From assembly GCA_003221005.1 (NCBI GenBank), contig QHTZ01000102.1, positions 1 to 26,489 of the forward strand: a stretch of 26,489 nt of DNA, read 5' to 3'. Numbering within the stretch: the stretch's first letter is position 1; every line of letters begins with the position of its first letter. The position numbers and the translations under genes were made by a program. Of this stretch, positions 1,264 to 22,717 are shown piece after piece. The notes below the pieces were generated by a model. The model did no database searches. It saw only the letters and a program-made list of their open reading frames with translations, and had not been told where the DNA came from. The stretch comes from Gemmatimonadota bacterium (GTDB lineage Bacteria; Gemmatimonadota; Gemmatimonadetes; Gemmatimonadales; GWC2-71-9).

Positions 1264-1297
1264 ACTTTATGTGGCGGACCGGCGTCTGAAAATGAGC
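1264..1297 (-). promoter_or_regulatory. Putative promoter GCTCATTTT-N19-TAAAGT
   Basis: Same spacing as the motif at 5112, 10091 and 13872; GGGACT begins 28 nt upstream (1325, minus strand). Confidence 0.6.
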
Positions 1298-1345
1298 CAG
1301 GTTGCCGATTGGCGCCCAGAGTCCCGGAGGCGAGCGGGACAAACA

Positions 1346-1379
1346 CCCCATCGCGCCCTTCCAGTCATCGAGGTAGCGT
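1346..1379 (+). promoter_or_regulatory. Putative leaderless promoter CCCCATCGC-N19-TAGCGT
   Basis: CCCAT core at the conserved spacing; the in-frame GTG of the aminotransferase lies 7 nt after the -10 box. Confidence 0.5.
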
Positions 1380-1386
1380 CAAGACA

Positions 1387-2538
1387 GTGCTCAGAGGTCT
1401 CCGGCCCGAGGCTGCTCGCGTCACCCTGAACAGCCATGTGGCCTTCGTCGATCTTCGTGCGCAGACGCGTGCGCTGCACCCGGCACTGATCGCTGCGATC
1501 GAGACGGTGTTGAGCCGCGGGGACTACGTTCTGGGCGATGACCTGGAGCGCTTCGAGGCCGAGTTCGCGGCCTTCTGCGGGACCGGCCATGCCGTTGGCG
1601 TCGATTCCGGCCTCTCGGCGCTCGAGCTCGCCCTGCGCGCGGCAGATATCGGACCGGGGGACGAGGTCATCACCCAGGCAAACACCTTTATCGCCACCGT
1701 CGCGGCGATCCTTGCGGTGGGGGCGCGACCCGTCCTGAGTGATTGCGACGAGCAGGGCGGAATGGATCCGGCGGCCGTCGAGGCCTGCGTCTCGCCGCGC
1801 ACGCGGGCCGTCGTCCCAGTCCATCTCTTCGGCCGCATCGGAGAGATCGAGGTGATCCTGGCGCTGGCCGCGACACACGGCCTCGCGGTGATCGAAGATG
1901 CCTGTCAGGCGCACGGGGCCGTGTGGCTTGGCAAACGGGCGGGCAGCTTCGGCCTCGCCGGCGCGTTCAGCTTCTATCCCTCCAAGAACCTCGGCGCATT
2001 CGGCGATGGTGGAATGCTGGTCACGAACTCCGCGGCGCTCGCAGACAAGGTGCGACTCCTGCGGTCCTACGGCCAGCGGGTCAAGTACGTGCATGAGACG
2101 ACTCCGATGAACCATCGCCTGGATACGCTGCAAGCCGCGATTCTTCGGGTCAAGCTTCCGCACCTCGACAGCTGGAACTATCGCCGGCGCAGGCTCGCGG
2201 CCTCGTACATGGAGCGCCTTGGCGGCCTGCCGATCGGACTCCCCTGGGCCGAAGAGGACGGACGCCACGTCTATCACCTGTTCGTCATCGACGTGGACCG
2301 CCGCGACGAACTCCGCGCCGCCCTGGCATCGGACGGCATCGAGACCGGCATTCACTACCCCGTCCCGCTTCACCGCCAGCCTGCTCTGGCGGCGCTCGGC
2401 TATCGAGAGGGCGCTTTCCCCCGCACCGAACGCCTGGCCGAACGCAGCCTCTCCCTGCCCATGTACCCCGAGCTCCCGGTGGACCACCTGGAGCACGTCG
2501 CCACCTCGATCCGCCACTTGGTTGAAGGTTGGGCTTGA
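1387..2538 (+). CDS. DegT/DnrJ/EryC1/StrS-family PLP-dependent nucleotide-sugar aminotransferase
   Basis: VAFVDL, GPGDEVI, VIEDACQAHGA, FSFYPSKNLGAFGDGG (PLP lysine), HVYHLFVI, GIHYPVPLH, LSLPMYP. Start set at GTG 1387 (leaderless position); GTG 1438 is an alternative and ATG 1213 is probably too far upstream. Confidence 0.93.
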   Translation: MLRGLRPEAARVTLNSHVAFVDLRAQTRALHPALIAAIETVLSRGDYVLGDDLERFEAEFAAFCGTGHAVGVDSGLSALELALRAADIGPGDEVITQANTFIATVAAILAVGARPVLSDCDEQGGMDPAAVEACVSPRTRAVVPVHLFGRIGEIEVILALAATHGLAVIEDACQAHGAVWLGKRAGSFGLAGAFSFYPSKNLGAFGDGGMLVTNSAALADKVRLLRSYGQRVKYVHETTPMNHRLDTLQAAILRVKLPHLDSWNYRRRRLAASYMERLGGLPIGLPWAEEDGRHVYHLFVIDVDRRDELRAALASDGIETGIHYPVPLHRQPALAALGYREGAFPRTERLAERSLSLPMYPELPVDHLEHVATSIRHLVEGWA

Positions 2539-2542
2539 GGCT

Positions 2543-4136
2543 TCAGCCGCAGGAGGCGGTGCCAGCAGCGTAGAGGTCGTAGATTCGAATGACCTCTCTG
2601 CCCTGACTTGCTCGAAGAATCTGCTCGCGTTTCAGGAGCACGGCGTCGTAGCCCACATGCTGGCTGTCGGCGTCCTCGAGAAACTGCAGGCGTGACCAAT
2701 CGGCCGGGTCGTTGAATTCTGCAGCGGGCCGGCCGCACCCGAGCAGCTGGGCGAAGATCGGGCTCGCGCTCATCAGGAGGGCATGGGCGTCCACGACCAC
2801 CCAGCGCGCGCCGTCATGGCGCAGGCTCTCGATGGTCGAATCGCCGGCCGGCGTCACGATCCTGTGCCCGGGATCGAGCCCGGCGACGACGTCCCATCTC
2901 TGTTCGGTGTAGGCGACGTATACCGGGCCGCGAGTCGTCACGATCGGGCCAGGGTGTGCGGCCAGCCACCGGCCGGCCTGCGCGGTGCCGCTCGCGTCTC
3001 GTGCGAAGCTGCTTTCCGTCCAGCCGGTCACGAGACATGTCCCACAGAGCGTGAGGGCGACGGTCCACTGCAGCGCAGGGCTCCTCAGCAGCGTTACACC
3101 CCGGGCGATGACCAGCGCGGCGAACGGGACGCAGGCGACGATCGCCCGCGGCGCCTTGTCGTGAGCGGCGCTGAAGAAAAGGAGGGTGCCGACCATGCTC
3201 CCGATCGCGATCGCGGCCAGGGGATCGAGTCTCCTCCAGCTCCACAGGCAGGCGACCAAACCGCCGCCTGCGAGCAGGAGCGTCGGCCCTCCGAACTCCC
3301 AGAGCGTGCGGACGTAGAAATCTGGGAAGGCGAAGGGAAGGGCCGATTCAGCACCGGAGCGAATGAACTGCCGGCTCAGCAGAGCAGGCAAATGCGGGAG
3401 TCCGACGGCAGCCGCCCCGACAAGCAGCATGTATGTCCCCACGATGGCCACGGTGGGAACCAGGCACAGGAGCCCCAACCGTCCGATCGGCGCCCTCGGC
3501 GGCAGGTCATGACGCCGGTACCACCATGTCAGCCAGCCGAGCACCAGGACGATCGGCAGCAGGGCGGGCAGAAGGCGGTAGTTGAAGCTCAGGGTCGCCA
3601 CGATCGTGACAACGGTCAGCATGGCGAGCGTTCTCGAAGGTCGGGCATCCCACCAGCGGTCCAGGAGCAAGAGCACCAGCGCCAGGCCGGCCAGGCAGGC
3701 GGCGTCGGAGACGACCCGATGTCCGTAGACGATGCTCAGCGGCACCGCCGCTGCGAAGACACCGGCGACGGCGGCCGCGGGAGCGCCCCAGCGTCTCTCG
3801 GCTAGCGCCGCCAGCGCCGCCACCATCACGAGGCCGGCCAGGGCGCTGATCCAGGTCAGGTTCTCAGGCGCTACGCCGGCCGCCAAGCGTGATCCATTGC
3901 TGGGGGTGAGTCAGGACCGCCACCAGGAAGCGGCCGTTCGACAGCGACCAGCCTTCGTCGTACGCCACCGGCCCTCCACCCGGCAGCCCCCACGCGCGCA
4001 CGGCGACGGCCGACAGCAGAAGCGATCCGACGGCAATCATCTTTGCCAGCTGCGAATTGGGCACCGCACGAACGTCCGGGCCCGCGGTCCGAACCCGCCC
4101 CGCCCGTATGGATGAGGCGGCCGCGGAATTTTTCAC
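2543..4136 (-). pseudogene. GT-C superfamily (ArnT/PMT-like) membrane glycosyltransferase interrupted by a frameshift near 3866-3910
   Basis: The N-terminal part (GTG 4136, overlapping the upstream TAG, to TGA 3864) carries a first TM helix and YDEG. The multi-TM remainder (3886-2543; VVSDAACL, LSFNYRLLP, DKAPRAIVACVPF) is in a different frame. Confidence 0.7.
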
Positions 4137-5023
4137 TATCGCGGGATAGGCGGGCCGTGTTTGAGCGCCGGCCAGCCGCCGTTGAGAATGTCGACGCGGC
4201 TGTAGACGGCCAGACGCGTGCCGACGATGTGGAAGACCGGTCGATCCACGAGCGGTGAGAGCTCGTTTACGACTCTGTAGATGCCCGGGTAGTAGAGGTA
4301 ATCGTCCCAGACGATCGTGCCTCGATCGGACAGCATCCTGAAGGCCGCGTCGGTATCCGACCTGACGTAGTCCATGCTGTGGCTTCCGTCGATGAAGACG
4401 AGATCGATCTTGCCGTGGTACGGCGAGAAATCGAACGTCGCCGAATCCCCGAAGAGTTGTGTGATCCTGCCGGCTTCTGGGGTGCCACGGAACCGCGCGC
4501 CGCGGTCCCACACGACGAAGTACTCGGGGTCCGTGACCTCGTACTTGAGGTGATCGACGGCGTCAAGGGTGGGCAGATCGAGCGTGAAGACGTGGGCATC
4601 GGGATTGTTGTGAGCCAGAAGCCAGGTGGTCTGTCCGAGGTACGTCCCGATTTCGAACACGTTCCGGCACTCGAGGAGCTTGCACAGAGCGCCGAGAACC
4701 AGACGGCAGTGGCGCGTGACGTCTCCCTCGACCAGGGTGGTATCCATCCGGAGATCCGCGAGGTCGACGTTCAGGACGCCTGGCGCGAGAAAGCGCTGTA
4801 GCTCTAGCCAGATGTGCCCGAGCAGACGGTATCTGGATCCGTGCCCGCCCGTGATAAGAGTCCGGGCGAGACCGGCTGAGATCGACCCGATCAAGTAACG
4901 GTTGTCCCACAGCCGGGGTCCAACCTGCTGGCCGTTGAGCCGGCGCGCAAGGCGGCCGGGAGTAAGGCGCAAGAGATCGTCCGCCTTGCGGGACTGGTGG
5001 TCGCCGTGCGCTGCACGCAGCAC
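4136..5023 (-). CDS. Class I SAM-dependent (O-)methyltransferase, Methyltransf_24-like
   Basis: VFEIGTYLGQTT, VFTLD, QLFGDSATFDF, DLVFIDGSHSMDYVRSD, GTIVWDDY. GTG 5023 lies 8 nt after a TAACCT -10 box. Confidence 0.88.
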   Translation of the reverse strand: MLRAAHGDHQSRKADDLLRLTPGRLARRLNGQQVGPRLWDNRYLIGSISAGLARTLITGGHGSRYRLLGHIWLELQRFLAPGVLNVDLADLRMDTTLVEGDVTRHCRLVLGALCKLLECRNVFEIGTYLGQTTWLLAHNNPDAHVFTLDLPTLDAVDHLKYEVTDPEYFVVWDRGARFRGTPEAGRITQLFGDSATFDFSPYHGKIDLVFIDGSHSMDYVRSDTDAAFRMLSDRGTIVWDDYLYYPGIYRVVNELSPLVDRPVFHIVGTRLAVYSRVDILNGGWPALKHGPPIPR

Positions 5024-5031
5024 TACGACCG

Positions 5032-5066
5032 AGGTTAGGTCCGCGCCTGGGAGAGCCTCAAGGGGA
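5032..5066 (-). promoter_or_regulatory. Putative promoter TCCCCTTGA-N20-TAACCT (weaker motif match)
   Basis: TANNNT box 8 nt before the methyltransferase GTG; only a partial match to the shared upstream element. Confidence 0.4.
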
Positions 5067-5111
5067 CATTAGCCTTCTGTCTGGGACTGGGCGGTCCGCC
5101 CGCTTCGCGTT

Positions 5112-5145
5112 GCCCATTTCGGCGCCCTGTGATCAGCCCTAGCGT
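5112..5145 (+). promoter_or_regulatory. Putative promoter GCCCATTTC-N19-TAGCGT
   Basis: Exact 9-mer and spacing shared with 10091 and 13872; GGGACTG at 5083, 29 nt upstream. Confidence 0.62.
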
Positions 5146-5194
5146 CGTTTGCGAAAGCAATTTTTCGTCACCCCTGTCTCACCGCATCGTCAAC

Positions 5195-6358
5195 ATGAAC
5201 CCACACCCGGTCGTGGTCATCGGCGCCGGGCCATACGGCCTTTCCGTGGCTGCCCACCTGAGAGCAGCGGGCATTCCCACTCTCGTCTTCGGCCAGCCCA
5301 TGGCCTTCTGGCAGCGCATGCCGCGCGGAATGAACCTCCGCTCGGCATGGAGCGCTACGAGCCTCTCAGCTCCTGGCGGAGCCTATAGCCTCGACAGCTA
5401 CCGGGCCACCGTGGGAGCTCCGCAGCAGCTTCCAATTCCGCTGCCCTTCTTCATCGACTATGGCCTCTGGTTTCAGCAGCACGCCGTCCCGGACGTCGAC
5501 CCGACGCAAGTCCAGCTGCTGAGCAGCGAGGACGGTGGGTTCCGCGTCGAGCTCGCCGACGGGCGAACCGTTCGCGCGTCGCGTGCAGTGGTCGCCGTTG
5601 GCATCGACACCTTCGAGCACATTCCGGAGTTCGCCAGCTGCCTTCCCGCATCTCACGCGTCGCACACGCGCGAACACCGAGATTTCAGTCGATTCAGCGG
5701 AGCCAGCGTTGCGGTGGTCGGCGGCGGCCAGAGCGCAATCGAGTCGGCGGCGCTGTTGAACGAGGCCGGCGCGCGGGTCGAGCTGATTGCGCGAGCGGGC
5801 CTGCGATGGCTCAAGCTCCACGACTACCGCGGTCCGGGACGGCGGATCCTGTACGCGCCAAGTGACGTAGGGCCTCCTGGCCTGAACTGGCTGCTGCATT
5901 TCCCGCTCGCCTTCCGCCTTCTTCCGGACAACACCAGAAGCGCGATCACGAGGCGGGCTGTACGGCCTGCGGGCGCGCGCTGGCTCATCGAGCGGGTGGT
6001 CGGGCACGTCCGCCTGACCACCCACACCTCGGTGGTGGAAGCGATTCCGGACGCGCGTGGCGTCTATCTCGATCTGAGCGACGGCACGACGCGCCTGGTG
6101 GACCACCTGGTCCTTGGAACCGGCTACAGGCCAGCCGTGGAGAAGGTGCCCTTCATCGCTCCCTCGCTCCGGGATCGGATCCGCGAGCGGGGTGGGTTCC
6201 CCGTTCTCAACCGGTGGTTGGCATCGTCCGTTCCGGGCCTTCACTTCGTCGGCGCTCTGGCGGACGGCAGCTACGGCCCGATCTGCCGGTTTGTCTCGGG
6301 CGCGGACGTGGCCGCTCGCCAGATCGCCGCCTACGCCGCTCGAGAGCCGGCCGCGTGA
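5195..6358 (+). CDS. FAD/NAD(P)-dependent oxidoreductase (flavin monooxygenase-like)
   Basis: Two Rossmann motifs (VIGAGPYGLS; VAVVGGGQSAIESA), LVLGTGY and SSVPGLHFVG. ATG 5195 preferred over GTG 5129. Confidence 0.88.
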   Translation: MNPHPVVVIGAGPYGLSVAAHLRAAGIPTLVFGQPMAFWQRMPRGMNLRSAWSATSLSAPGGAYSLDSYRATVGAPQQLPIPLPFFIDYGLWFQQHAVPDVDPTQVQLLSSEDGGFRVELADGRTVRASRAVVAVGIDTFEHIPEFASCLPASHASHTREHRDFSRFSGASVAVVGGGQSAIESAALLNEAGARVELIARAGLRWLKLHDYRGPGRRILYAPSDVGPPGLNWLLHFPLAFRLLPDNTRSAITRRAVRPAGARWLIERVVGHVRLTTHTSVVEAIPDARGVYLDLSDGTTRLVDHLVLGTGYRPAVEKVPFIAPSLRDRIRERGGFPVLNRWLASSVPGLHFVGALADGSYGPICRFVSGADVAARQIAAYAAREPAA

Positions 6359-7530
6359 ACCGCGCCGACGGCGTCGGCGCCGTCGTCGTTGGAGGTGACT
6401 ACCAGGGTCTCGGGATCGTCCGCAGCCTCGGGCGGCGCGGCCTGCCGGTGTGCGTGATCGACGACGAGCGCTCGATCTCGCCGCACTCCCGATACACGAC
6501 CCACGCCGTGCGAGTGCCCAGCCTTCGCGACCAGGACCGATCGGTGGACGTGATACTCGAGGTCGGCAGCAGGCTCCGTCTCGACGGCTGGGTTCTGTTC
6601 CCCACCAGGGAGGAGACGGTCGCTGCGTTTTCCCGGCACCGGGATCGCCTCCGCGAACGATTTCGGGTGCCGACTTGCGGGTGGGATGCCGTGCGGTGGG
6701 CGTGGGACAAGCGCAACACCTACAGGCTGGCTCAGCAGCTGGGCATTCCCGTCCCGCGGACGTGGTATCCGAAGTCGATAGCCGACCTCCGGGATGTCGA
6801 CGCGGAGCCTCCGTTCGCGATCAAACCGGCGATCAAGGAACACTTCTTCTACGCCACGAAGGCGAAGGCATGGAAAGCCCGCACCCGAACCGAGCTGGAG
6901 GATCTTTTTCGGCGCGCTGCTTCCGTGGCCGGGCTCGGTGAGGTGATGGTCCAGGAATTCATTCCTGGGGATGGTTCGCAGCAGTTCGCCTGCTGCGTCT
7001 TCTTCAAACGCGGCACCGCCGTCGGCCAGATGGTGGTGCGGAGGCTGCGCCAGCACCCACCTGATTTCGGACGCGCCAGCACCTACGTGGAGACGATGGA
7101 CGTGCCGCTGCTGGAGAGCCTTTCTCACAGGCTTCTCCGGGCAGTGGACTACTACGGTCTAGCCGAGCTGGAGTACAAGCTCGACCCGCGAGACGGCCAG
7201 TACAAGCTGCTCGATTTCAATGCCCGGACCTGGGGGTATCACTCGCTCGGAGGCCGGGCGGGCGTGGATTTCCCGTATCTGCTTTTCGCCGACCAGATCG
7301 GCTGCGCCCCCGATCCGTGTCGCGCGCGGGCCGGCGTCCGTTGGGTCCGCATCCTGACCGACCTGCCCACAGCACTGTCGACGCTCGCCGGTGGCAAGCT
7401 GGCGTGGCGATCCTATGTGAACTCGCTCCGGATCGCGCACACCGAAGCCGTGTTCAGTCGGGACGATCCCATGCCGGGGCTGGCCGAGATCGCCTTGCTT
7501 CCATATCTATGGGTGAAGCGGGGCTTTTAG
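6355..7530 (+). CDS. ATP-grasp ligase (D-aspartate ligase-like carboxylate-amine ligase)
   Basis: GLGIVRSLGRRGLPV, WVLFPT, DKRNTY, PFAIKP, VMVQEFIPG, YGLAELEYKLDPRDGQYKLLDFNAR. GTG 6355 overlaps the upstream stop (GTGA). Confidence 0.88.
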   Translation: MNRADGVGAVVVGGDYQGLGIVRSLGRRGLPVCVIDDERSISPHSRYTTHAVRVPSLRDQDRSVDVILEVGSRLRLDGWVLFPTREETVAAFSRHRDRLRERFRVPTCGWDAVRWAWDKRNTYRLAQQLGIPVPRTWYPKSIADLRDVDAEPPFAIKPAIKEHFFYATKAKAWKARTRTELEDLFRRAASVAGLGEVMVQEFIPGDGSQQFACCVFFKRGTAVGQMVVRRLRQHPPDFGRASTYVETMDVPLLESLSHRLLRAVDYYGLAELEYKLDPRDGQYKLLDFNARTWGYHSLGGRAGVDFPYLLFADQIGCAPDPCRARAGVRWVRILTDLPTALSTLAGGKLAWRSYVNSLRIAHTEAVFSRDDPMPGLAEIALLPYLWVKRGF

Positions 7531-8306
7531 TCGTCAGGCTTGCGGGCAACGGCAAAAAGAAAGCAGCCAAAGAGCGATGGCGCCGTTGTCTCCAGCACTC
7601 GGTAGAGACTCGATGTCCGCAGGTCTCGGCCGGCTCGCAGGCGCCGTCCCATCCATGGAAGATCACCGAGCAGGCTCCCCGAATGCCCGCCCACTCGAAT
7701 CGACTGGAATCCGCACCAGGTGAGAAGCCGGCGCAGGGCCCCGGCGTTGAAGAAACGGATGTGTGGATCGGCCCACGGCCGCTCGACCGCCAGACCGTAT
7801 CCGAACGGGTTCCACCGGCCGAGGAGCGCGAGGTCCAGCCGCCTTCTCCAGTAGGCGACGTTGGGCGTGGTGACGATCAGCGTCCCTCCCGGACTCAGGA
7901 CACGCAGGATCTCCTGGATGCTTCGGTCGGGCAAGAAGACGTGCTCGATCACTTCGAGGCAAAGGACGACGTCGAAGGAGTTGTCTGCGAACGGAAGGTG
8001 GTCAGACCCCTTGATCAGCCGAGCGTCAAGAGCCCGACCTCGAGCCGCCGCAACAGCTCGTTGAGAGATGTCGACGCCGATATAGGCGCCGCCGCATCCG
8101 GTCACCACGGTCCCGGCCCTGCCGTCGCCGCAGCCCACGTCGAGGCAGCGCGCGCCCGGATACACGTGTTGCCGGAGCAGCATCTCGACCTTGCGGGGGG
8201 CCCGTTGGTCGGGTCGTTCGAAGGGCCGCCAGTAAACGTCGTAGTAGGTGTCGTAGTACTGCCGGAGCTCCGCGGCGGGTTCTTCGGCCGCGGGCTCAGA
8301 CGCCAT
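7527..8306 (-). CDS. Class I SAM-dependent methyltransferase (Methyltransf_11-like)
   Basis: CLDVGCGDG, YIGVDIS, LPFADNSFDVVLCLEVIEHV, PGGTLIVTTPN, HIRFF. ATG 8306 overlaps the GT2 3' end; the upstream part of the track ORF is a shadow of the GT2 gene. Confidence 0.9.
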   Translation of the reverse strand: MASEPAAEEPAAELRQYYDTYYDVYWRPFERPDQRAPRKVEMLLRQHVYPGARCLDVGCGDGRAGTVVTGCGGAYIGVDISQRAVAAARGRALDARLIKGSDHLPFADNSFDVVLCLEVIEHVFLPDRSIQEILRVLSPGGTLIVTTPNVAYWRRRLDLALLGRWNPFGYGLAVERPWADPHIRFFNAGALRRLLTWCGFQSIRVGGHSGSLLGDLPWMGRRLRAGRDLRTSSLYRVLETTAPSLFGCFLFAVARKPDD

Positions 8307-9273: not shown

Positions 9274-9920
9274 TAGGCTCCGCGACAGCTGATGACGATG
9301 AAGATCGTCTTCAGGAGGATCACGGCGTCCAGCCCAAGCGATTGTCTAGCGATGTAGTCGCGATCGGCGGCCATCCATCCTTCGACAGTGCAGTCCGAGC
9401 GGCCGCTGACGACCCACAGACAGGTCAGGCCTGGCTTGGCGTTGAGCCGGATCAGGTCATCCGGCCTGAAGTGCTCGACATGGTCGGGGATGCACGGCCG
9501 TGGACCGACCAGGCTCATCTCTCCGCTGAGCACGTTGAGCAGCTGGGGGACCTCGTCCATGCTGGTGCGCCGCAAGATGCGACCCACGCGGGTGACCCTT
9601 GGATCCTGACGGAGTTTGTAGACCGGGCCTTCGACTTCGCCGCGCCTGCGCATCTCCGCGAGCCGGGTCTCGGCGTCGATCTGCATGGTCCGGAACTTGA
9701 AACAGCGGAAGTGCTTGCCGCTGAACCCGACGCGCTCCTGCACGAAAAGAACGGGACCGGGGGAATCCAGCTTGATGGCGACAGCGATCACGACCCACAG
9801 CGGGATGATGGCAACCAGCGCGGGGACGCTCACCAGTACGTCCATGACGCGCTTGGCCGTCGCATAGGAAAGCCACTGACGGCGGGTCGTTCCGACCCGC
9901 GCCTCCACCGCGGTGAGCAT
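9270..9920 (-). CDS. Priming sugar-phosphate (polyprenyl-phosphate glycosylphospho)transferase, Bac_transf family
   Basis: KRVMDVLVS, IKLDSPGPVLFVQERVG, FKFRTM, DPRVTRVGRILRRTSMDEVPQLLNVLSGEMSLVGPRP, KPGLT, C-terminal GAY. Confidence 0.95.
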   Translation of the reverse strand: MLTAVEARVGTTRRQWLSYATAKRVMDVLVSVPALVAIIPLWVVIAVAIKLDSPGPVLFVQERVGFSGKHFRCFKFRTMQIDAETRLAEMRRRGEVEGPVYKLRQDPRVTRVGRILRRTSMDEVPQLLNVLSGEMSLVGPRPCIPDHVEHFRPDDLIRLNAKPGLTCLWVVSGRSDCTVEGWMAADRDYIARQSLGLDAVILLKTIFIVISCRGAY

Positions 9921-9932
9921 TGGCCTGCCCCG

Positions 9933-9967
9933 AGGCTAGCCCATGCCGCCATCCCCGATAAATGGGA
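9933..9967 (-). promoter_or_regulatory. Putative promoter TCCCATTTA-N20-TAGCCT
   Basis: CCCATTT core; the -10 box ends 12 nt before the sugar-transferase ATG. Confidence 0.5.
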
Positions 9968-10013
9968 AACAGCCGAATACCGGATAGGCCCGAGCCCGAG
10001 GCATGGCCGCCAT

Positions 10014-10043
10014 GTCCCAGGACTTTGGCCCAGGGCCTGGGAC
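10014..10043. repeat. 8-bp inverted repeat GTCCCAGG-N14-CCTGGGAC in a divergent promoter region
   Basis: Read directly from the sequence; carries the recurring GTCCC/GGGAC element. Confidence 0.5.
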
Positions 10044-10090: not shown

Positions 10091-10124
10091 GCCCATTTCT
10101 ACCGGCTTGGCGACCACCTACGCT
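10091..10124 (+). promoter_or_regulatory. Putative promoter GCCCATTTC-N19-TACGCT
   Basis: Exact 9-mer and spacing; GGGTAC at 10062, 29 nt upstream. Confidence 0.62.
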
Positions 10125-13821: not shown

Positions 13822-13871
13822 ACCTGGCTCCATGCAGCGGCCGGGACTGCAGCCCAGACCGCGAGCCTTGC

Positions 13872-13905
13872 GCCCATTTCCCACCCCGCGGCGCCTACAT
13901 ACGCT
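13872..13905 (+). promoter_or_regulatory. Putative promoter GCCCATTTC-N19-TACGCT
   Basis: Exact 9-mer and spacing; GGGACTG at 13843, 29 nt upstream; ATG 7 nt downstream. Confidence 0.62.
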
Positions 13906-13912: not shown

Positions 13913-13975
13913 ATGCCGCACTCATCCTGCTGCTCGCCGCCGCCTACGTCAGGTCAGCGGCCCGCGGTTATCTGA
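13913..13975 (+). CDS. Putative leaderless upstream peptide, 20 aa (MPHSSCCSPPPTSGQRPAVI)
   Basis: ATG 7 nt after the -10 box; its TGA directly abuts TTG-ATG of the co-polymerase, in the same frame. Confidence 0.35.
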   Translation: MPHSSCCSPPPTSGQRPAVI

Positions 13976-15400: not shown

Positions 15401-16425
15401 AGCCGATCGCCGGACGTCGACTTGTGGTCGCCTGGGACGAGTCCCAGCCGCGAACCCGCGCCCTTGGTCCGGCCCTGGGGGGCGAATCCCACCTTATATA
15501 TGGTGGCTGGCCAGGGCGGCAGGTCGCCCTCCTCCCGTTGCGGTATCTCGCCGACGCTTCACGGATGTGGCGGGTGCTGCGCAGCCGACGTCCGGAAGCC
15601 CTGGTCGTGATCTCGCCGCCAACCGTTGCGCCGCTGGTGGGGTGCGTCTGGAGCCTGGTCCATCCGTGCCTCCTCGTCGTTGACTGCCATACCGCCGCCC
15701 TTCATTCGCCGAAATGGGGCTGGACGCTGCCCCTCCACCGCCTCCTCTTCTGTCGCGCTGACGCGGTTCTGGTCCACACCGAGGAAGATGAGGCGCGAGT
15801 CAGCCGATGGGGTGTTCCGGCCTTGCTGCTGCCGGATGACCTGCCCGATGCTGACCAGGCGGATCCGTCCTTTCGGAGCACCAGCGTCCCGCGGGTCGTG
15901 GTCGCCGGCAGCTTCGACCGTAACGAGCCGGTCGCGCTCACGCTCGCCGCGGCTGCACTCCTTCCGGACATGGAGGTGCGGTTGACGGGCGATGTGCGGC
16001 GGCTTGCCCCGAACGTGCGCTCGAAAGCGCCCGCCAACGCCGTCTTCACGGGATATCTCTCTTACCCGCAGTTCCTCGGCGAGCTCCTGACCGCCGACGT
16101 GGTGGCGGCGTTCAGCACCGATCGGCACATCATGAATCGAGCCGCCTTTGAGGCGGTCGGCCTCGGCCGTCCTCTCGTCCTATCCGATCTCCCAGGCCTC
16201 CGGGCTCGATTCGGGGAGGCGGCCGTGCTCTGTCGAAACGAAGCGGCGGCGATGGCTCAGGCCATCCGCCAGGCGCACCGTGACGGGCAAGAGCTCGCCA
16301 AGCTCAGCCAGGTCCTCCGGGGCCGGCTGCAGGCCCAGCGAGAGGCCGCCCTCGCCGAGTTGATGTCGATGATGGAGATGGCCTCGGCCGGCTGGTCCCG
16401 CGGCCGGGTGCGCTCAGCGTCGTGA
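15397..16425 (+). CDS. GT4-like (GT-B) glycosyltransferase
   Basis: LVVISPP, LVVDCH, ADAVLVHT, VVVAGSFDRNEP, FTGYL, ADVV, AAFEAVGLGRPLVLSD; GTGA overlaps at both ends. Confidence 0.88.
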   Translation: MKPIAGRRLVVAWDESQPRTRALGPALGGESHLIYGGWPGRQVALLPLRYLADASRMWRVLRSRRPEALVVISPPTVAPLVGCVWSLVHPCLLVVDCHTAALHSPKWGWTLPLHRLLFCRADAVLVHTEEDEARVSRWGVPALLLPDDLPDADQADPSFRSTSVPRVVVAGSFDRNEPVALTLAAAALLPDMEVRLTGDVRRLAPNVRSKAPANAVFTGYLSYPQFLGELLTADVVAAFSTDRHIMNRAAFEAVGLGRPLVLSDLPGLRARFGEAAVLCRNEAAAMAQAIRQAHRDGQELAKLSQVLRGRLQAQREAALAELMSMMEMASAGWSRGRVRSAS

Positions 16426-17738
16426 CCGCCGGCCTCGTTGCCCGAGGCACGACTCTCATGCGGAGCGGGCTCATTCGCACCGCCATGGGTCTCTACGCCA
16501 TCCAGGCCAGCAGCTGGCTGGTGCCGCTGGCGACGATCTTCTTCCTGGCCCGCAGGCTGGGTCCTGAGCACTGGGGGCTCCTCATGTTCATGCAGGGTGC
16601 GGCCGCCTACGTGATCTTCCTCGTGAGCTATGGCTTCACCTATTCGGCCACCCGTGAGGTTGCTCGCAATCGCGGCGACCCGGACAGGCTCGCAGACATT
16701 CTCGCCGGCGTCCTCGGCGCCAAGGTGACGTTGGCCATCCTCTCACTCCTGATCGTCATCCCGGCAAGCCTCCTTGTCCCGGCCATCCATCGCAGCCAGG
16801 ACCTCCTCTGGCCGACCATGCTCTGGGCGTTTGCCTGGGCCTTCAGCGCGAGCTGGTACTACCAGGGACTTGAGCGCATGGGGGTCGCGGCCGGATGCGA
16901 AGCGTCGGCTCGCGTTCTCTCCCTGGCCGGCATCCTGGTGCTGGTGCGGTCCCCGAACGACACATGGAAGGTGCTCGCCATCCAGGGTGGTCTGGTCTTT
17001 GTCGCCGTCCTCGTCGAGACGGCGCTCGCGTATCGCCAGGTGGGCTTTCGAATGCCTACCCCTCGACTCGTGTGGAAGACGCTCCGCTGGGGCTGGAGCA
17101 TGTTCCTGCTCGGAGGTGCGCTCAGTCTCTACACGATCGGAAACGGTTTCATCCTCGGGCTCTTCGCATCTTCAACCGTGGTTGGCTATTACATGGGCGC
17201 CGAACGCATCAGCAAGAACTTCGCCACCCTGCTCAGCCCGATCACCCAGGCCGTCTTCCCTCGGACCAGTCACCTCGCCGTGCATGCTCGCGGCGAGGCG
17301 GCCAGGCTGACCCGGACGAGCCTCTTCGTGATGGGCGGCACCGCCTGCGCCATAGGCGTCCTGGTCTTCTTTGGCGCCCCGTTTCTGGTTCGCGTGGTCC
17401 TCGGGCCAGGTTTCGAGCCTGCGGTCGTGGTCCTCAGAATCCTGGCCTGCCTGCCGCCGCTGATCGTGGCGAGCAACGTCCTCGCGGTGCAGTGGATGCT
17501 GGCGCTGGGCCTGGACCGTCTGGTCAACACCCTCATGTTCTCGGCCGGAGTGCTGAACGTAATTCTGGCGGTGGCGCTGGTGCCCAGGTACATGCACGTC
17601 GGCATGGCGATCGCGGTGGTCGCCGCTGAAGCCTTGGTCACGTTCGGGCTCTACGCCGTGGTCCGGATCAAGCAAGTCGACCCGCTGGCGATCGCCAGGC
17701 TCGACGAGCAGGCAGAGCCTGCAAGGCTGTCGGCCTGA
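16422..17738 (+). CDS. wzx: Wzx flippase (polysaccharide transporter)
   Basis: FLARRLGPEHWG, YGFTYSATREVA, WYYQGLERM, VGYYMGAERI, QAVFPR, VLGPGF; about 12 hydrophobic segments. Confidence 0.92.
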   Translation: MTAGLVARGTTLMRSGLIRTAMGLYAIQASSWLVPLATIFFLARRLGPEHWGLLMFMQGAAAYVIFLVSYGFTYSATREVARNRGDPDRLADILAGVLGAKVTLAILSLLIVIPASLLVPAIHRSQDLLWPTMLWAFAWAFSASWYYQGLERMGVAAGCEASARVLSLAGILVLVRSPNDTWKVLAIQGGLVFVAVLVETALAYRQVGFRMPTPRLVWKTLRWGWSMFLLGGALSLYTIGNGFILGLFASSTVVGYYMGAERISKNFATLLSPITQAVFPRTSHLAVHARGEAARLTRTSLFVMGGTACAIGVLVFFGAPFLVRVVLGPGFEPAVVVLRILACLPPLIVASNVLAVQWMLALGLDRLVNTLMFSAGVLNVILAVALVPRYMHVGMAIAVVAAEALVTFGLYAVVRIKQVDPLAIARLDEQAEPARLSA

Positions 17739-17740
17739 CG

Positions 17741-19138
17741 GTGGGCGCGAGCTTGATCGAGGCCATCATGCCGCGGATCATCGCTCTGATCCCGCTCGTC
17801 CCGGCTATGTGCGCAGGGCTCGCGTTTCTCGTCTTGACCTTCTGGCGCCCCGCAGCGGGCTGCGGCCTGCTCGTGCTGTTGACGCCGCTGACGACTGGCC
17901 TGGGTCGAGGCACGATCGTGCCCTTCCTGCGCCCAAACGAAGCCCTGCTGCTCGCTCTCCTCGCGGGCCTTGCCCTGCACCGCCTTCACCACCCGCATCC
18001 GCGACCGATCACGAGCCTCGACCTGGCGGTCGGAAGCTTTGCCATCGGCACGGTCGTCGTGCCCTCCCTCGTGCTTTTGGTCTCGAACCAACCCGGTCTC
18101 CCGGGCGCGGACACACTCCATGATGTACTGGCGCCGGCGCAGTTCCTGCTGGTCTATCTGGTCTTCTCGAGGACCCCGTTCTCGAGCCGCAGCGTGCCGA
18201 TGATCCTCAACCTCGCGATGCTCGCCGGCGTCATTGTGGGTCTGGTGGCCATCGCGGAACTCGTGGACGTGGGCGGGATTCGGGAGCTGATGGCCAGGTA
18301 CTACCCGGTTCCCGTCACGCCAAGCTGGGATCCGGTCTACAGGCCGATGTCGACGCTCGGCCACTACAGCGCGGTCGGGGCTTTCGGAGCCATGAACTTC
18401 ACCCTGGCCCTGTCCCTGGCGACCGCGCGCCATCCCGACTTCTCCGGACCCTGGTTGATCGTGGTGATGGTGGTGAACCTGGCGGCCGTGGTCGTCAGCC
18501 TGACGTGGGCGCCGCTGTTGGTGATCCCGCTCGTGGCCGTGATCATCCTCTGGCACGGACGTCACGTACCGTGGGAGCTTGGCGTCACCGTCGTAGCCCT
18601 CGCCGTCGCCTTCGTCGTTTTCTGGCCGGCCGTCAGCGAGCGCATCGCCCAGCAGGGTCTGGCCTCGTCAGTCGGCCTGGTGGTCCCCCAGACCTTTCAG
18701 ACTCGCCTTGACCACTGGCAGCAATTCTTCCTGCCGGCGCTTGCGGACCACGTCTGGCTTGGGAGCGGGACGATCATCCCGAGCATCGTCCCGACGCCAT
18801 TGACCGATTTCGTCGACAACGAGTACCTGCGTGACGCTTTCCGGGCGGGTGTCGTGGGTCTGATGCTCCTGCTGGTCATGTTGCTGGCGATCGCCCTGAC
18901 CGGGTGGAGGAGCCGGCGGGCCGGCTCCGATCCGACGGCGCGGAGTCTCGGAAGCACGTGCCTGGCCCTTGTCGTATTCCTGGCGCTGATTGGAGTGACC
19001 GCCGAATACCTCTTCTTCGGCGGCGTCTCTCAGGAGTTCGCGATGCTGGTCGGGCTGCTGGCGGCTCAGAACCTGGTCGAGGCCCGCGTGGAGCAGCGAT
19101 CAGCGACGGGCTCGCTCACATCCCATAGCCCGGCTTGA
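17741..19138 (+). CDS. Wzy-like polymerase / O-antigen ligase-family membrane protein
   Basis: Polytopic; RPMSTLGHYSAVG, TRLDHW, WLGSG and VDNEYL...GVVGL match the Wzy_C-type loop layout; directly follows wzx. Confidence 0.8.
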   Translation: MGASLIEAIMPRIIALIPLVPAMCAGLAFLVLTFWRPAAGCGLLVLLTPLTTGLGRGTIVPFLRPNEALLLALLAGLALHRLHHPHPRPITSLDLAVGSFAIGTVVVPSLVLLVSNQPGLPGADTLHDVLAPAQFLLVYLVFSRTPFSSRSVPMILNLAMLAGVIVGLVAIAELVDVGGIRELMARYYPVPVTPSWDPVYRPMSTLGHYSAVGAFGAMNFTLALSLATARHPDFSGPWLIVVMVVNLAAVVVSLTWAPLLVIPLVAVIILWHGRHVPWELGVTVVALAVAFVVFWPAVSERIAQQGLASSVGLVVPQTFQTRLDHWQQFFLPALADHVWLGSGTIIPSIVPTPLTDFVDNEYLRDAFRAGVVGLMLLLVMLLAIALTGWRSRRAGSDPTARSLGSTCLALVVFLALIGVTAEYLFFGGVSQEFAMLVGLLAAQNLVEARVEQRSATGSLTSHSPA

Positions 19139-20153
19139 TCGTGCCTGCGGTAGCCGCCCCGACAGCCTGGATCATCTCGGTCCACGGGGCGGAGAAGTCG
19201 CCCGCATCCCAGTTCTGGTAGAGCCCGAAGCCGGACTCATGCATCACGAAGTGCACCCAGGAGACGCCCAGCTGGTTGAAGTCCGCGAGATCGTCCGGCA
19301 CGTACGCGGTGCCCTGCGAGAGGGGCGCGCCCACCTCGCCGACGAGAAACGGCCGCTTTGTCGGATTTGAGGGATCGGCGCCCGGAAAGTTGCAGCCCTC
19401 GGTCCCCATCGGCGCGTAGCAATGACCCGACCAGAGGATGCGGTCGCCATTGACCGATGGCAGATCCCAGTCGGCTGAGCTGACCTCGAGCAGTACGAAA
19501 TGGTTTGGATCGGCGGCGGTAATCGCGTCGTAGACCCCTTGCGCCCAGGAGTCGTAAGCGGCGACTGAGGGCGGCGCGGGCTCGTTGAACACGTCGTATC
19601 CGGCGATCGTGGAGTTGGCCTGGTAATGACTGGCGAAGTCGGCCCAGAAGTCAATCAGCGCCTGCTGGTTGGGCGCCGAGCTCCAGAATCCGTCCTGGCC
19701 ACCGTATCCACCGTCGGTGCCTCCGGGCGGCTCGTACATGACGGGGATCAACCAGAGATGATTGGCCATCGCCCAGGTGACTTGCCGATCGACCACGGCG
19801 AAGAACCTGGCGCGGTCAGCCGCGTACCAGGAATAGTCGAGACCGAAACGGATCACGTTCTCGCCCAGGACGCCGCTCGCCTGCTCATAGTCGGCGGTGT
19901 TGACGTTGATCAGGCTGATGTCCGGCCCGCCGCAGCAGGACAGCGCCGGCTCGTTGTTGAAATTCTCACCCCGCAGCACCACGTCCTGGCCTCCGTAGAC
20001 GAGCTTGCCGTCGCTGACAGTGAGGTAAGAAGAATCCGTGACAGGACGGGCCAAGTCTGCGGTCGCCGAAACCGAGGCGGGCTGCGCGGAGCTGGCCGGC
20101 GTCAGCAGCGCGGCCAGCAAGCTTGCAAGCAGGGCGATCTGGGTGTGACGCAA
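19116..20153 (-). CDS. Secreted GH5-family glycoside hydrolase
   Basis: Signal peptide (MRHTQIALLASLLAALLTPASSA; TTG 20153 with GGAG 6 nt upstream, GTG 20177 alternative), LRGEN, NVIRF, IAGYDVFNEP (acid/base), SGHCY, PFLVGEVG (nucleophile). Confidence 0.87.
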   Translation of the reverse strand: MRHTQIALLASLLAALLTPASSAQPASVSATADLARPVTDSSYLTVSDGKLVYGGQDVVLRGENFNNEPALSCCGGPDISLINVNTADYEQASGVLGENVIRFGLDYSWYAADRARFFAVVDRQVTWAMANHLWLIPVMYEPPGGTDGGYGGQDGFWSSAPNQQALIDFWADFASHYQANSTIAGYDVFNEPAPPSVAAYDSWAQGVYDAITAADPNHFVLLEVSSADWDLPSVNGDRILWSGHCYAPMGTEGCNFPGADPSNPTKRPFLVGEVGAPLSQGTAYVPDDLADFNQLGVSWVHFVMHESGFGLYQNWDAGDFSAPWTEMIQAVGAATAGTIKPGYGM

Positions 20154-20315
20154 AGTCGGCTCCAACAGCCAGTTCACCGCACGACCCCGGAACCCGTCAA
20201 CCCGGCAAGAGCCACCGCGCATGGGCGCTCGTCCCAAGCAGGCACGATGCTGTCCCGAGGCGGAGCTGGCGAACCCATTGCCGAGTGGCGTGCCCGCTGC
20301 TTTGGTTGAACCGAG

Positions 20316-20888
20316 ATGGGGAGCCGGGGAGTCACGATTCACCAGACCGCAGAGGTGTCGCCAGATGCCGCCGTCGGTGCGGGAACCAGGGTCTGGAACG
20401 AAGCCCAGGTCCGGGAAGGCGCCCGGGTCGGTCGCGACTGCATCCTCGCCAAGGGGGTGTACGTGGACGCCGGCGTCGTGGTCGGCGATCGCGTCAAGCT
20501 CGAGAATCGGGTGTCCCTGTTTCGGGGAGCGCGTCTGGGTTCGGGCGTGTTCGTCGGACCCCACTCATGCCTGTTGAACGACAAGCGGCCTCGCGCGACC
20601 ACCCTGGGAGGCAGGCCGAAGCGGGAGGCGGATTGGATCGTGAGCGGCGTGACGGTCGCCGAAGGAGCCTCGATCGGGGGCGGCTGCACCGTCCTGCCGG
20701 GCGTCCACATCGGACGTTTCGCGATGGTGGGAGCGGGCGCGGTTGTCACCCGAAACGTACCGGATCACGGTCTGGTGGTAGGCAATCCCGCGCGGCTGGT
20801 CGGCTACGTCTGCGAATGCGGTTGCCGGCTGCAGGCGGACGGCACCTGCGCGAGCTGCGGCGTTCGCCTCGAAGCTATGCCGGCCTGA
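20316..20888 (+). CDS. WbpD/WxcM-like hexapeptide-repeat sugar N-acetyltransferase with Cys-rich C-terminus
   Basis: IHQTAEVSPDAAVGAGTRVW, GVFVGP..LLNDKRPR, GASIGGGCTVLPGV, AMVGAGAVVTRNVP, VVGNPARLVGYVCECG...CASCG. Confidence 0.9.
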   Translation: MGSRGVTIHQTAEVSPDAAVGAGTRVWNEAQVREGARVGRDCILAKGVYVDAGVVVGDRVKLENRVSLFRGARLGSGVFVGPHSCLLNDKRPRATTLGGRPKREADWIVSGVTVAEGASIGGGCTVLPGVHIGRFAMVGAGAVVTRNVPDHGLVVGNPARLVGYVCECGCRLQADGTCASCGVRLEAMPA

Positions 20889-21285
20889 AGGCGGGGCCCG
20901 CCTCGACCAGCTCGGTGAGGATCGAACCTCTGAGCATGACGAAACACACCCGCCGGCCTTCGAAGGCCACCGCCGGCGTCGGCCGACCGAGGAGCCGCGC
21001 CCCCCTGGCCTGGAGCTTTTGCAGCTCCGGCTCCAGCGCGTCAGCCAGGAATGCCTGGTGGTAGATGCGCACACCTCTCGCGAGCCAGCCGTCGAGCACT
21101 GTCGATCCGGGTAGCTGCTCGAGCACCTCGAGCTGCGGTCCGCAGCCACGCAAGAACAGGCCCCTGACGCCCAGCACCGGATCGGTGAACGGCGTTCCCA
21201 CCGCCGCATAACCGAGGCTGGACAGGGCGTCGACCTCCGCGGTCAGGTCGGGCGAGGCGACGCCAAGATGATGAAAGGTCAGCAC
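20875..21285 (-). CDS. VOC-family protein (methylmalonyl-CoA epimerase/glyoxalase-like)
   Basis: FHHLGVASPDL, LEVLE, IYHQAF, AVAFEGRRVCF, LTELVE give an H/E/H/E metal-ligand pattern. Confidence 0.85.
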   Translation of the reverse strand: MLTFHHLGVASPDLTAEVDALSSLGYAAVGTPFTDPVLGVRGLFLRGCGPQLEVLEQLPGSTVLDGWLARGVRIYHQAFLADALEPELQKLQARGARLLGRPTPAVAFEGRRVCFVMLRGSILTELVEAGPAFRPA

Positions 21286-21875
21286 GCTGTTTCAGCGCTC
21301 CTGCATGCGACCGAGGCCACGCCCGCCGGCAGCCGCCACGACCACACGCGCCATTCCGGTGTCGTCCGCTCGGATAGGTCAGCGCCCAGCCAGTCGAGCA
21401 GGTTGGCGCCATCTGCTTTCGCCATCGCCTCCTTCTGCGTCCACAGCCGGTAGAAGCCTGCCCGGCCGCCGGAGGGGCCGGCACGTCGAAGGCGGCGTGC
21501 TTCTTCGGGTGCGAAGAACCGGTCCGCCAGGCCCCTCCAATCCAGGCCGGGCCGGAACAGCTCCACGTCGACCCCGACCTCGCCTCCTTGAGTCAGCGCG
21601 TAGAGGACGCGGTCTCTTGAGTGCGACACGCTGAAGCGAAGCGGTGGCTCACGCGCTGGAGATATCAAGATCGGCTTGCCATTGGACTCACGTCCGACAT
21701 GGATGCTGCGCGGCGTGACGCCCAGATAGCGCGCGAGGCGGACGCAAAGCTGGCTGTGACCGGCTTGCCGTTTCAGCGAGCCCAACCAGACGTGCACCTC
21801 TCCCGGCTCCAGCGGAGCAAAGTCCTCGATCTGCTTCGAGCGCTTGTCAGGAGCGGCCAGGACAAGAAGCTTCAC
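21279..21875 (-). CDS. Sfp-type 4'-phosphopantetheinyl transferase
   Basis: NGKP, FSVSHS, VGVDVE, FYRLWTQKEAMAKADG. Confidence 0.92.
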   Translation of the reverse strand: MKLLVLAAPDKRSKQIEDFAPLEPGEVHVWLGSLKRQAGHSQLCVRLARYLGVTPRSIHVGRESNGKPILISPAREPPLRFSVSHSRDRVLYALTQGGEVGVDVELFRPGLDWRGLADRFFAPEEARRLRRAGPSGGRAGFYRLWTQKEAMAKADGANLLDWLGADLSERTTPEWRVWSWRLPAGVASVACRSAETAC

Positions 21876-22369
21876 GCCCGGATCGGCTTCAGGTTGCGGT
21901 AGAACTCGACCGCCGACGCGTTCGGACCGAGGGGCACTCCACAGCGCGCCACCGGTCGGGCCGGATTGCCCTGCACAAGGGTCATCTCCTGTACGTTGCC
22001 GGACACCACGCTGCCGGCGGTCACCACCGCCCCACGACCGATCGTGACGCCGGGCAGGATGATCGCGCCCGGGCCGACCCAGGCCTGATCTTCGACCCTG
22101 ACGGAGACGGTACCGCGGGCCAAAAGCGTCGGGGTCACGTCATTGAAGTGGGCGATGATCATGCTGCGCGCACCGAGGAAAACGTCGTTCCCTATCGAGA
22201 CCAGCTCCGGATGCATGGTCTCGATGATCACGTCGGTGCTGATGAAGACCCCCTGGCCGATGTCCACCCCTCTCCAGCGGTGCAGGCGCAACCTGAGGTT
22301 GCTTCCTCCAGGAAGGAACAGAGCAGCCACCTGGAGAAGGCGGATCTTGACAGCGCGGAGAGTCTTCAT
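21872..22369 (-). CDS. Left-handed beta-helix (hexapeptide-repeat) acyltransferase
   Basis: RGVDIGQGVFI, PELVSIGNDV, IIAH, AWVGPGAIILPGVTIGRGAVVTAGSVV, VQGNPAR. Confidence 0.88.
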   Translation of the reverse strand: MKTLRAVKIRLLQVAALFLPGGSNLRLRLHRWRGVDIGQGVFISTDVIIETMHPELVSIGNDVFLGARSMIIAHFNDVTPTLLARGTVSVRVEDQAWVGPGAIILPGVTIGRGAVVTAGSVVSGNVQEMTLVQGNPARPVARCGVPLGPNASAVEFYRNLKPIRA

Positions 22370-22375
22370 GTGCGC

Positions 22376-22675
22376 CTAAGCGGAGCGCGCCTCGCCCTGG
22401 GACAGCTTCATCCGCAGCAATGCCTGCAGCTCGCCGAAAGTGGCCGACGCCCGCAGCTCCTCGAGCTCATCGTCATCGAAGCGAACGGCGAAGCTCTTCT
22501 CCACTTCGAAGATGACGTTGATCTGAGAGAGCGAATCCCATCCGGGGATGTCGGTGTATGGGGTGGCGGCCGCAAGCCGAACATCCGGCACCCGGAACAG
22601 TTTCTGCACTATCTCGACCAGCGTCGGGTGCAGTGCCCCGAGATCGCCTCCACCTACGAAGGGGAGGGCTCTCAT
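22376..22675 (-). CDS. Acyl carrier protein
   Basis: DIPGWDSLSQINVIFEVEKSFAVRF (DSL phosphopantetheine serine) and TFGEL. ATG 22675 is 7 nt after TATACT. Confidence 0.88.
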   Translation of the reverse strand: MRALPFVGGGDLGALHPTLVEIVQKLFRVPDVRLAAATPYTDIPGWDSLSQINVIFEVEKSFAVRFDDDELEELRASATFGELQALLRMKLSQGEARSA

Positions 22676-22682
22676 CGACTCG

Positions 22683-22717
22683 AGTATATGAACGAGGCCG
22701 GAAGGGCCGGCATGAGC
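22683..22717 (-). promoter_or_regulatory. Putative leaderless promoter GCTCATGCC-N20-TATACT
   Basis: Near-consensus -10 box, ATG 7 nt downstream, GCTCAT shared with the 1297 promoter. Confidence 0.6.

Follow-up and report, generated by a model that had tools for sequence, protein, structure and literature searches.

NarL reads the heptamer TACYYMT, which occurs singly or in varied arrangements, and GerE, with its box TRGGY, binds beside or over the −35 region of the promoters that it activates. The box in which DosR reads GGGACT/TGTCCC has its centre at −43.5, next to a −35 hexamer that is suboptimal, as described in the excerpted text of PMC13486717, and the Dev boxes described in the excerpted text of PMC3177182 lie at −42.5 and −63.5 in phase with the helix, serve divergent promoters and are needed in tandem. 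A TANNNT hexamer about 12 nt ahead of the start codon marks leaderless genes in high-GC bacteria, according to the excerpts of PMC3160421. Here we describe a promoter element comparable with these, CYCAT-N22/23-TANNNT, in a polysaccharide-biosynthesis cluster on a contig of 26,489 nt (QHTZ01000102.1, the whole of which we call the window), which is the full contig C12 of a Gemmatimonadota genome bin of 2.79 Mb and 141 contigs (GCA_003221005.1, here G000). Systems of this kind have been described; new here are the motif, the regulon and the lineage. By sequence comparison, the motif is genuine, conserved and cluster-specific, and we see roughly an even chance that the promoters of the cluster undergo class II activation by a cluster-linked NarL/DosR-like regulator.

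A search of both strands of the window for CYCAT-N22/23-TANNNT returned exactly seven matches, with CYCAT starting at 1347+, 5113+, 10092+, 13873+, 22716−, 9966− and 1296−, and these are the same seven sites, each in its place, that the original prediction had listed. The N22 form accounts for five matches, while 100 dinucleotide shuffles average 0.10 and none of them reached five; the N23 form accounts for two against 0.17 expected, a count that 2 of the 100 shuffles reached. The significance of the motif is thereby upheld, in a test that is partly circular because the pattern was defined from these same sites. That circularity is also what favours chance, or a general −35 consensus of the organism, as the explanation, together with the probable placement of the contig in the wrong bin, which would give any comparison with G000 the wrong background. 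We nevertheless consider this reading very improbable indeed, since three independent supports remain: among spacings of 10–35 nt, a spacing of 22 gave five matches, 23 gave two and the 24 others none; a start codon lies exactly 7 nt past the −10 box at four of the seven sites; and the motif is conserved at orthologous loci.

The conservation could be followed because a protein search of public genomes with the Bac_transf priming transferase of the window found the same cluster in five metagenome-assembled genomes (MAGs), G414–G418. In the loci as first fetched, each of these homologous clusters carries four to six copies of the motif at orthologous places, and the whole G414 contig has all seven sites. 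For a quantitative comparison, the window was set against G416, G417 and G418 at the four promoters that they share, those of the Bac_transf, GFO/IDH, FAD-oxidoreductase and Wzz-like genes (11 pairs); the match G417:1978+, which lies in a coding region and has no boxes upstream, was excluded here and from the offset counts given below. The core, taken as CCCAT with three bases on either side, is identical at 110 of 121 positions (91%) and at 55 of the 66 that belong to its six pattern-free positions, and the −10 box at 57 of 66 (24 of 33 at its unfixed positions), whereas the two spacer halves agree at 38 of 99 and 41 of 110 positions (37–38%), the 40 nt upstream at 188 of 440 and the 7 nt downstream at 18 of 77. 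The consensus over 28 related sites is G-CCCAT-T-(T/C)-C followed by TACGCT(C). A duplicated promoter cassette is ruled out as a source of the repetition, as the spacers of the window sites share nothing.

The motif is also restricted to the cluster. The cluster contig accounts for 4 of the 6 matches to CCCATT-N21/22-TANNNT in G414, for 4 of 8 in G415, for 4 of 7 in G416, for 5 of 13 in G417 and for 5 of 10 in G418, while the reversed control gives one to three matches per genome; in G000, 7 of 21 CYCAT-type matches fall in the window, which is 0.95% of the bin. Occurrence of the motif at ordinary housekeeping promoters or at background frequency, which would speak against a dedicated element, was not found: CYCAT stands in register at 1 of 338 leaderless-type promoters in G000, namely the window's own 1347+, and at 1 of 30 in the sample of G415. 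The concentration in the cluster in each of the five homologous genomes, which are the likely host lineage, together with these leaderless counts, rules out a general −35 element of the organism. Of the four matches that G415 has elsewhere, one precedes a kinase-regulator operon, one a receiver gene just behind it and one a GT4 gene, and these three also fit the regulon; the outside matches G417:C51, G417:C102, G414:C194, G414:C340 and G415:C13 look like chance or unrelated promoters. Seventy-five more distant Bac_transf loci have zero to two matches each, the exceptions being two from AT-rich Clostridium (4–5) and one from Muribaculum (3). Among 40 relatives of G000, CCCATTT-N20/21-TANNNT is at background, with 0–4 matches per genome against 0–8 in the reversed control.

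That last result has a simple explanation, because the contig most likely belongs to another lineage. Contig DNA of G415 is 99.2–99.9% identical to positions 1444–21157 of the window, the G414 contig is about 93% identical over the whole window, and that of G417 is collinear at 70–78%. The rpoB gene of G000 is 95% identical to that of G001, a relative in the same genus, and 40–65% identical to those of G415, G417 and G414, with 40–60% for G415, while rpoB of G415 is 93.5% identical to that of G414 and 70% to that of G417, so the divergence of the cluster tracks that lineage. The cluster is absent from all 40 relatives of G000, where the best Bac_transf match is 53% identical, and in tetranucleotide composition C12 is the most atypical of the 69 contigs of G000 of at least 10 kb. 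By these comparisons the window contig is most likely mis-binned in G000, with a very recent transfer as the alternative; contig C9 of G000, which ranks fifth in composition, is likely mis-binned as well. If so, G415-type genomes are the right background, and the best explanation of the host is the high-GC, largely leaderless soil lineage of G414–G418. At NCBI these MAGs are titled Chloroflexi bacterium (G415), Candidatus Dormiibacterota (G414), Candidatus Eisenbacteria (G416), Chloroflexi (G417) and Candidatus Limnocylindria (G418).

As the original prediction had claimed, all of the sites lie between genes and are aimed at a gene, once gene starts are set by the limits of Pfam domains; 1347+ and 22716− fall within the longest possible open reading frames (ORFs), yet upstream of the in-frame GTG at 1387 and the ATG at 22675. 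The promoter CCCCATCGC-N19-TAGCGT (1347..1379, plus strand) has this DegT GTG 7 nt past its −10 box, a leaderless layout that is repeated at GCTCATGCC-N20-TATACT (22683..22716, minus strand; kept in G414), where the ATG at 22675 opens an acyl-carrier-protein gene followed in its operon by hexapeptide transferase, PPTase and GH5 genes. On the minus strand, GCTCATTTT-N19-TAAAGT (1264..1296) lies ahead of a DMFA2_C-like gene and is also kept in G414, and (T)CCCATTTA-N20-TAGCCT (9933..9966) lies 12 nt before the Bac_transf ATG (9920). On the plus strand, (G)CCCATTTC-N19-TACGCT occurs both at 10092..10124, upstream of the GFO/IDH/MocA gene and a GT4 gene of 915 aa, and at 13873..13905, upstream of the Wzz-like, GT4, Wzx and Wzy genes; like the Bac_transf promoter, both have orthologous sites in G414, G416, G417 and G418. 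The remaining site, (G)CCCATTTC-N19-TAGCGT (5113..5145, plus strand), stands upstream of the FAD oxidoreductase gene, whose likely ATG is at 5195, and has orthologous sites in G414, G417 and G418. A weak copy that had been placed at 5066− is present as CCCCT-N23-TAACCT (5065..5032, minus strand), with one mismatch and the GTG (5023) of a methyltransferase ORF 8 nt past its −10 box.

The −10 hexamer TANNNT is found at all seven sites by construction of the pattern, and its internal bases, with the consensus TACGCT, are similar to those of the leaderless set of G415. An ATG or GTG stands exactly 7 nt past it at four sites, against 8 nt at the weak site and 12 nt at 9966−, and two sites have longer leaders; at two of the four, the start codon opens a short upstream ORF (uORF) and not the annotated gene. 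These distances would fit leaderless mRNAs. In a 221-kb sample of G415, long coding ORFs begin 6 nt (13 cases) or 7 nt (10 cases) past TANNNT, with about two at other distances; in G000 the counts at 6 and 7 nt are 119 and 120, against about 55–65 at other distances, and each distance from 6 to 9 nt has 100–120 long-ORF starts. The layout is thus much like that of leaderless promoters in Actinobacteria and Deinococcus-Thermus, which have TANNNT about 12 nt before the start and little or no −35 consensus in the excerpts of PMC3160421; unlike those general promoters, the sites here have a specific upstream word, and only at one cluster and its regulators.

What stands in the −35 region can be read against the bulk promoters of G000, where intergenic TANNNT hexamers are preceded at 23–21 nt by T, T and weakly G, the canonical TTG at a 17-nt spacing. 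In the window sites, the T of CCCAT and the T after it fall on these TT positions, and GCCCA reaches 5 nt further upstream, so CCCAT would lie at −40..−36 if the transcription start site (TSS) that we infer is 7 nt past the hexamer. No TTGACA stands at 17-nt spacing at the sites, which read TTTCNN, TCGCGC or TGCCGG there and have only the TT in common with the TTG signal of G000. A Bacteroidetes-type −33/−7 promoter was considered and dropped, given that the bulk of G000 has TTG at the canonical −35 and the motif is cluster-specific.

Two of the start codons at 7 nt deserve description in their own right. The ATG 7 nt past the −10 box of 13873+ opens a leaderless uORF of 20 codons (13913..13975, plus strand), which ends with TGA in frame with, and 3 nt before, the Wzz-like ATG (13979). 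This layout is kept in G414, G416, G417 and G418 with 20 or 32 codons, and in all lineages the end reads TGA, NNN, then ATG or GTG, GAG and GA, while the peptide is poorly conserved; termination-reinitiation or readthrough could be at work. At 1296−, the ATG at 1256, again 7 nt past the −10 box, opens a 17-codon uORF (1203–1256, minus strand). This uORF is in a different frame from the DMFA2_C-like gene and runs across the ATG (1233) of that gene, an arrangement kept in G414.

A second element, GGGAC/GTCCC, lies upstream of the motif. CTGGGAC occurs four times in the promoter regions of the window against 0.21 expected and CCTGGGAC three times against 0.064, and a count of the pentamers without overlap gives 10 over the five promoter regions, which total 866 nt, for an expectation of 2.55. 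In promoter orientation they stand 29–30 or 50–53 nt before CCCAT in the window, and over all clusters, including the diverged ones, in which they often take the form GTCCCGGGAC or GGGAC-N6-GTCCC, their offsets group at −29..−35 and −50..−54. An inverted pair, GTCCC-N10-GGGAC (1321..1340), lies between the divergent promoters 1296− and 1347+, and two direct copies of GGGAC (5063 and 5083; 5063..5087, plus strand) stand at −50 and −30 from the CCCAT of 5113+. Another inverted pair, GTCCCAGG-N14-CCTGGGAC (10014..10043), is centred between 9966− and 10092+ with each pentamer 52–53 nt from its CCCAT, so that the region 9921–10141 reads symmetrically as CCCAT (minus), GTCCC, GGGAC and CCCAT (plus), and the position of the pair is kept in G414, G416, G417 and G418. 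A single GGGAC (13843..13847, plus strand) stands 30 nt upstream of the CCCAT of 13873+, at the same offset as in G414 and in G416–G418, where it appears as GTCCCGGGAC. Upstream of 22716−, a GTCCC at 22730 is followed by GTCCC-TT-GGGAC at 22764–22775 (together 22730..22775), which places minus-strand GGGAC at −18 and −52 from CTCAT; a perfect palindrome, ATCGGGA-A-TCCCGAT, lies between these GTCCC boxes at 22755–22769. At 1347+, and at 3013+ of C9 in G000, GGGAC is found 11 nt before CCCAT, forming a full GGGAC-N6-CCC box of 16 nt that would have its centre at −43.5 on the predicted TSS. Most proximal sites consist of one half-site alone, and GGGAC/GTCCC pairs are frequent. By its letters this element resembles DosR/DevR half-sites. 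Neither it, nor the leaderless layout, nor the probable mis-binning figured in the original prediction.

One stretch of this region can also be viewed in a population variant, found in three soil runs, in which 12 of 64 positions differ in 5042–5105 and one further position in 4738–5265; the patch 5042–5105 is thus hypervariable and separates two divergent promoters. All 12 single-nucleotide polymorphisms lie within it and none in 5106–5265, leaving the motifs and −10 boxes untouched: those in the spacer of the weak copy spare both of its boxes, and the GGGAC pair at 5063 and 5083 is spared as well. This evidence is post hoc and weak. The soil DNA contigs yielded only this one variable intergenic stretch, and among RNA runs none was found to contain the region.

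The original prediction had pointed out that the window encodes no regulator, and Pfam matches indeed give no DNA-binding regulator gene in the window. The statement is true of the window only: the 93%-identical G414 contig extends 4 kb past the window's right end and there encodes a hexapeptide transferase, a receiver-only protein, a REC-GerE response regulator and a HisKA_3 kinase, the last three 1–3 kb beyond that end. In G416, G417 and G418 an orthologous canonical regulator lies inside the cluster, followed by a CCCAT promoter and then an atypical REC-GerE gene; on the flank in G417 there are also genes for a GAF-HisKA_3 kinase and a GerE protein. All told, G414, G416, G417 and G418 each have a HisKA_3 kinase together with a REC-GerE regulator, either adjoining the cluster or within it. 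In G415, a module that bears the motif consists of a kinase, a canonical regulator, a CCCAT promoter and two receiver-only genes. C9 of G000, a second polysaccharide locus of uncertain host with a homologue in G417:C11, has a copy of the motif ahead of an atypical regulator, together with a HisKA_3 kinase in divergent orientation and a canonical regulator. The canonical regulator matches the solved structures of VraR, NarL, ChrA and DevR, with E values of 2e-44 to 1e-35 for VraR, NarL and DevR.

We propose that each promoter of the cluster would combine an ordinary TANNNT −10 box, with transcription starting some 6–8 nt downstream and often on the start codon itself, with GCCCATT(T/C)C at about −41 to −33, whose TT lies where the TTG of a −35 hexamer would sit. 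This word would be the promoter-proximal half-site of a NarL/DosR-type response regulator, and the same regulator, or a paralogue, would bind the GGGAC/GTCCC half-sites that lie upstream of it by some 30 and 52 nt, at intervals of roughly two turns on the same side of the helix. Phosphorylation would come from the HisKA_3 kinase whose gene is next to the cluster, and the regulator could then recruit RNA polymerase as a class II activator, much as DosR/DevR does, so that at least seven or eight units would be switched on together, along with the regulator's own operon. The earlier proposal of a dedicated factor that co-regulates at least seven units through an element at about −41 to −33 fits the conserved core and diverged spacers; beyond these observations and the synteny with NarL-type genes, we infer the TSS positions, the binding, the direction of regulation, the pairing of protein with element and thus the mechanism itself. 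Of the two kinds of factor that had been suggested, an activator is favoured, given the syntenic NarL-type genes and the extension of GCCCA upstream of the −35 place, and a sigma factor with altered specificity appears less likely, with none encoded on the five cluster contigs.

The likeness to DosR/DevR of M. tuberculosis, as that system is described in the excerpts cited above, lies in the GGGAC(T)/GTCCC half-sites, in a proximal box that would be centred near −43 on the predicted TSS, beside a weak −35, in further tandem boxes at steps of about two turns and in single intergenic regions that serve divergent promoters. A TANNNT −10 box, a leaderless-rich high-GC host and a regulator encoded with a HisKA_3 kinase are likewise common to both. 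Unlike in DosR/DevR, the word that is conserved best here, GCCCATT, is one half-site at a set distance from the −10 box, and the regulon would be a polysaccharide cluster of a different phylum. With DevR the regulator shares no more than family membership (E 1e-35 for the whole protein, 4e-9 for the DNA-binding domain), and NarL (E 3e-10) and GerE (E 2e-11) are relatives of its DNA-binding domain family and not orthologues. CYCAT corresponds to the last five letters of the NarL heptamer, although the two bases ahead of it here are not TA, and its complement AAATGGGC fits the GerE word.

Several observations weigh against this proposal. Full palindromes are rare here compared with DosR/DevR: the complete GGGAC-N6-CCC box is present at only 2 of 9 sites, the distal half being unrecognisable in the others, and the spacing within GGGAC/GTCCC pairs varies (N0, N2, N3, N6, N10 and N20), unlike in a fixed dimer box. 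The FkbH unit (22843+) has no recognisable promoter of the motif type, and the motif is absent from the first 20 kb of the locus in G417 that is homologous to C9. Several NarL-type proteins are encoded near the clusters (the canonical regulator, the atypical REC-GerE protein and the receiver-only proteins), and any of them may be the binder. The proximal word GCCCAT, moreover, differs from GTCCC, and this difference is one reason to consider two regulators that cooperate at each promoter, a cluster-linked factor such as the atypical REC-GerE protein reading GCCCATT and the canonical NarL-type regulator reading GGGAC/GTCCC. In keeping with such a division, a CCCAT promoter stands immediately ahead of the atypical regulator gene in G416, G417, G418 and C9 of G000, and ahead of receiver-only versions in G415, and the helix-turn-helix (HTH) domain of the C9 protein resembles that of the atypical protein in G417. 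G414 and G415, however, which have the window-type cluster, yielded receiver-only proteins and no atypical protein with an HTH, both MAGs being incomplete, and the C9 copy is split over two frames; on balance we think two regulators unlikely, if worth keeping in mind.

The very strict distance between CCCAT and the −10 box would suit a sigma factor equally well, and with 21–34 matches to Sigma70_r2 elsewhere in each genome, such a factor might be encoded at a distance from the cluster; these points, too, count against an activator. GCCCATT would then be the −35 element of a dedicated alternative or extracytoplasmic function (ECF) sigma factor, and the cluster would be transcribed with no activator, a reading favoured by the location of the element in the −35 region and by its distance of N22 or N23 only. 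Yet if CCCATT were the hexamer, the spacer would be 21–22 nt, much longer than the usual 16–18, and the −10 boxes look like the ordinary TANNNT of the lineage at the ordinary distance from start codons. ECF promoters have AAC and CGT cores with 16–17 nt between −35 and −10, and the sites here lack the AAC/CGT signature. With no Sigma70_r2 match, and no sigma or anti-sigma gene, on any of the five cluster contigs, we hold this sigma reading to be distinctly unlikely. The same location would allow the element to be an operator, at which a repressor on the −35 region shuts the cluster off, and NarL-family proteins can repress. A constant position relative to the −10 box is not required of an operator, yet the spacing here does not vary, and the promoters lack a good −35, as expected if they depend on an activator; repression is in our view decidedly improbable. 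A final possibility is that GCCCATT, instead of being a response-regulator half-site, may represent an element of the −35 region that is new in kind. It could be recognised by a sigma factor devoted to it, by region 4 of sigma acting with the receiver-only or atypical proteins whose genes follow the element, or by some other factor bound to RNA polymerase; this reading we regard as a rather slim prospect. Activation by a NarL/DosR-like regulator is the reading that we carry forward.

Some further features of the regulator loci were noted along the way. The atypical NarL-like regulator of C9 (L021, 3070–3775) is split over two frames, with the GerE HTH in the other frame from 3491, which may reflect a frameshift, two genes or an assembly error. 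Its receiver-like ORF lacks the usual acidic residues, and homologues of this receiver above 36% identity were absent from 40 relatives, as were matches at E<=1e-12 from 400 genomes of the phylum. In G417:C203 (L129), the region at about 6300–6420, upstream of the GAF-HisKA_3 kinase, contains GGGAC-GTT-GTCCC and a canonical TTGACA-N17-TAGGCT bracketed by GGGACAT...ATGTCCC; these boxes could represent autoregulation of a regulator operon.

The cluster itself is one of polysaccharide biosynthesis by its Pfam domain matches. It includes genes for a DegT aminotransferase and a PMT_2-like membrane protein, methyltransferases and an FAD oxidoreductase, the Bac_transf priming transferase (9270–9920, minus strand), a GFO/IDH/MocA oxidoreductase and GT4 glycosyltransferases, Wzz-like (a weak match), Wzx and Wzy proteins, and a GH5 enzyme, PPTase, hexapeptide transferase, acyl carrier protein and FkbH-like protein. 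At position 3885, inside the PMT_2-like membrane-protein gene, 74 nt are missing from the window relative to G415, G414 and the soil contigs, by either a deletion or an assembly error. The gap shifts the frame, so the apparently intergenic stretch 3887–4135 is really coding.

The presence of a near-identical contig in bins of two phyla means that genome-wide statistics drawn from this bin would have had the wrong background. If GCCCATT were a new −35-region element, the envelope polysaccharide genes of an uncultured soil phylum with leaderless transcripts would have a promoter class of their own, linked to conserved leaderless uORFs whose TGA stands 3 nt before the main start. For the activator that we favour, the promoters would represent a DosR-like layout, leaderless and activator-dependent, outside the Actinobacteria. 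The analysis offers a concrete regulon prediction for an uncultured soil lineage, made up of cis-elements, the units that they would drive and a candidate two-component system.

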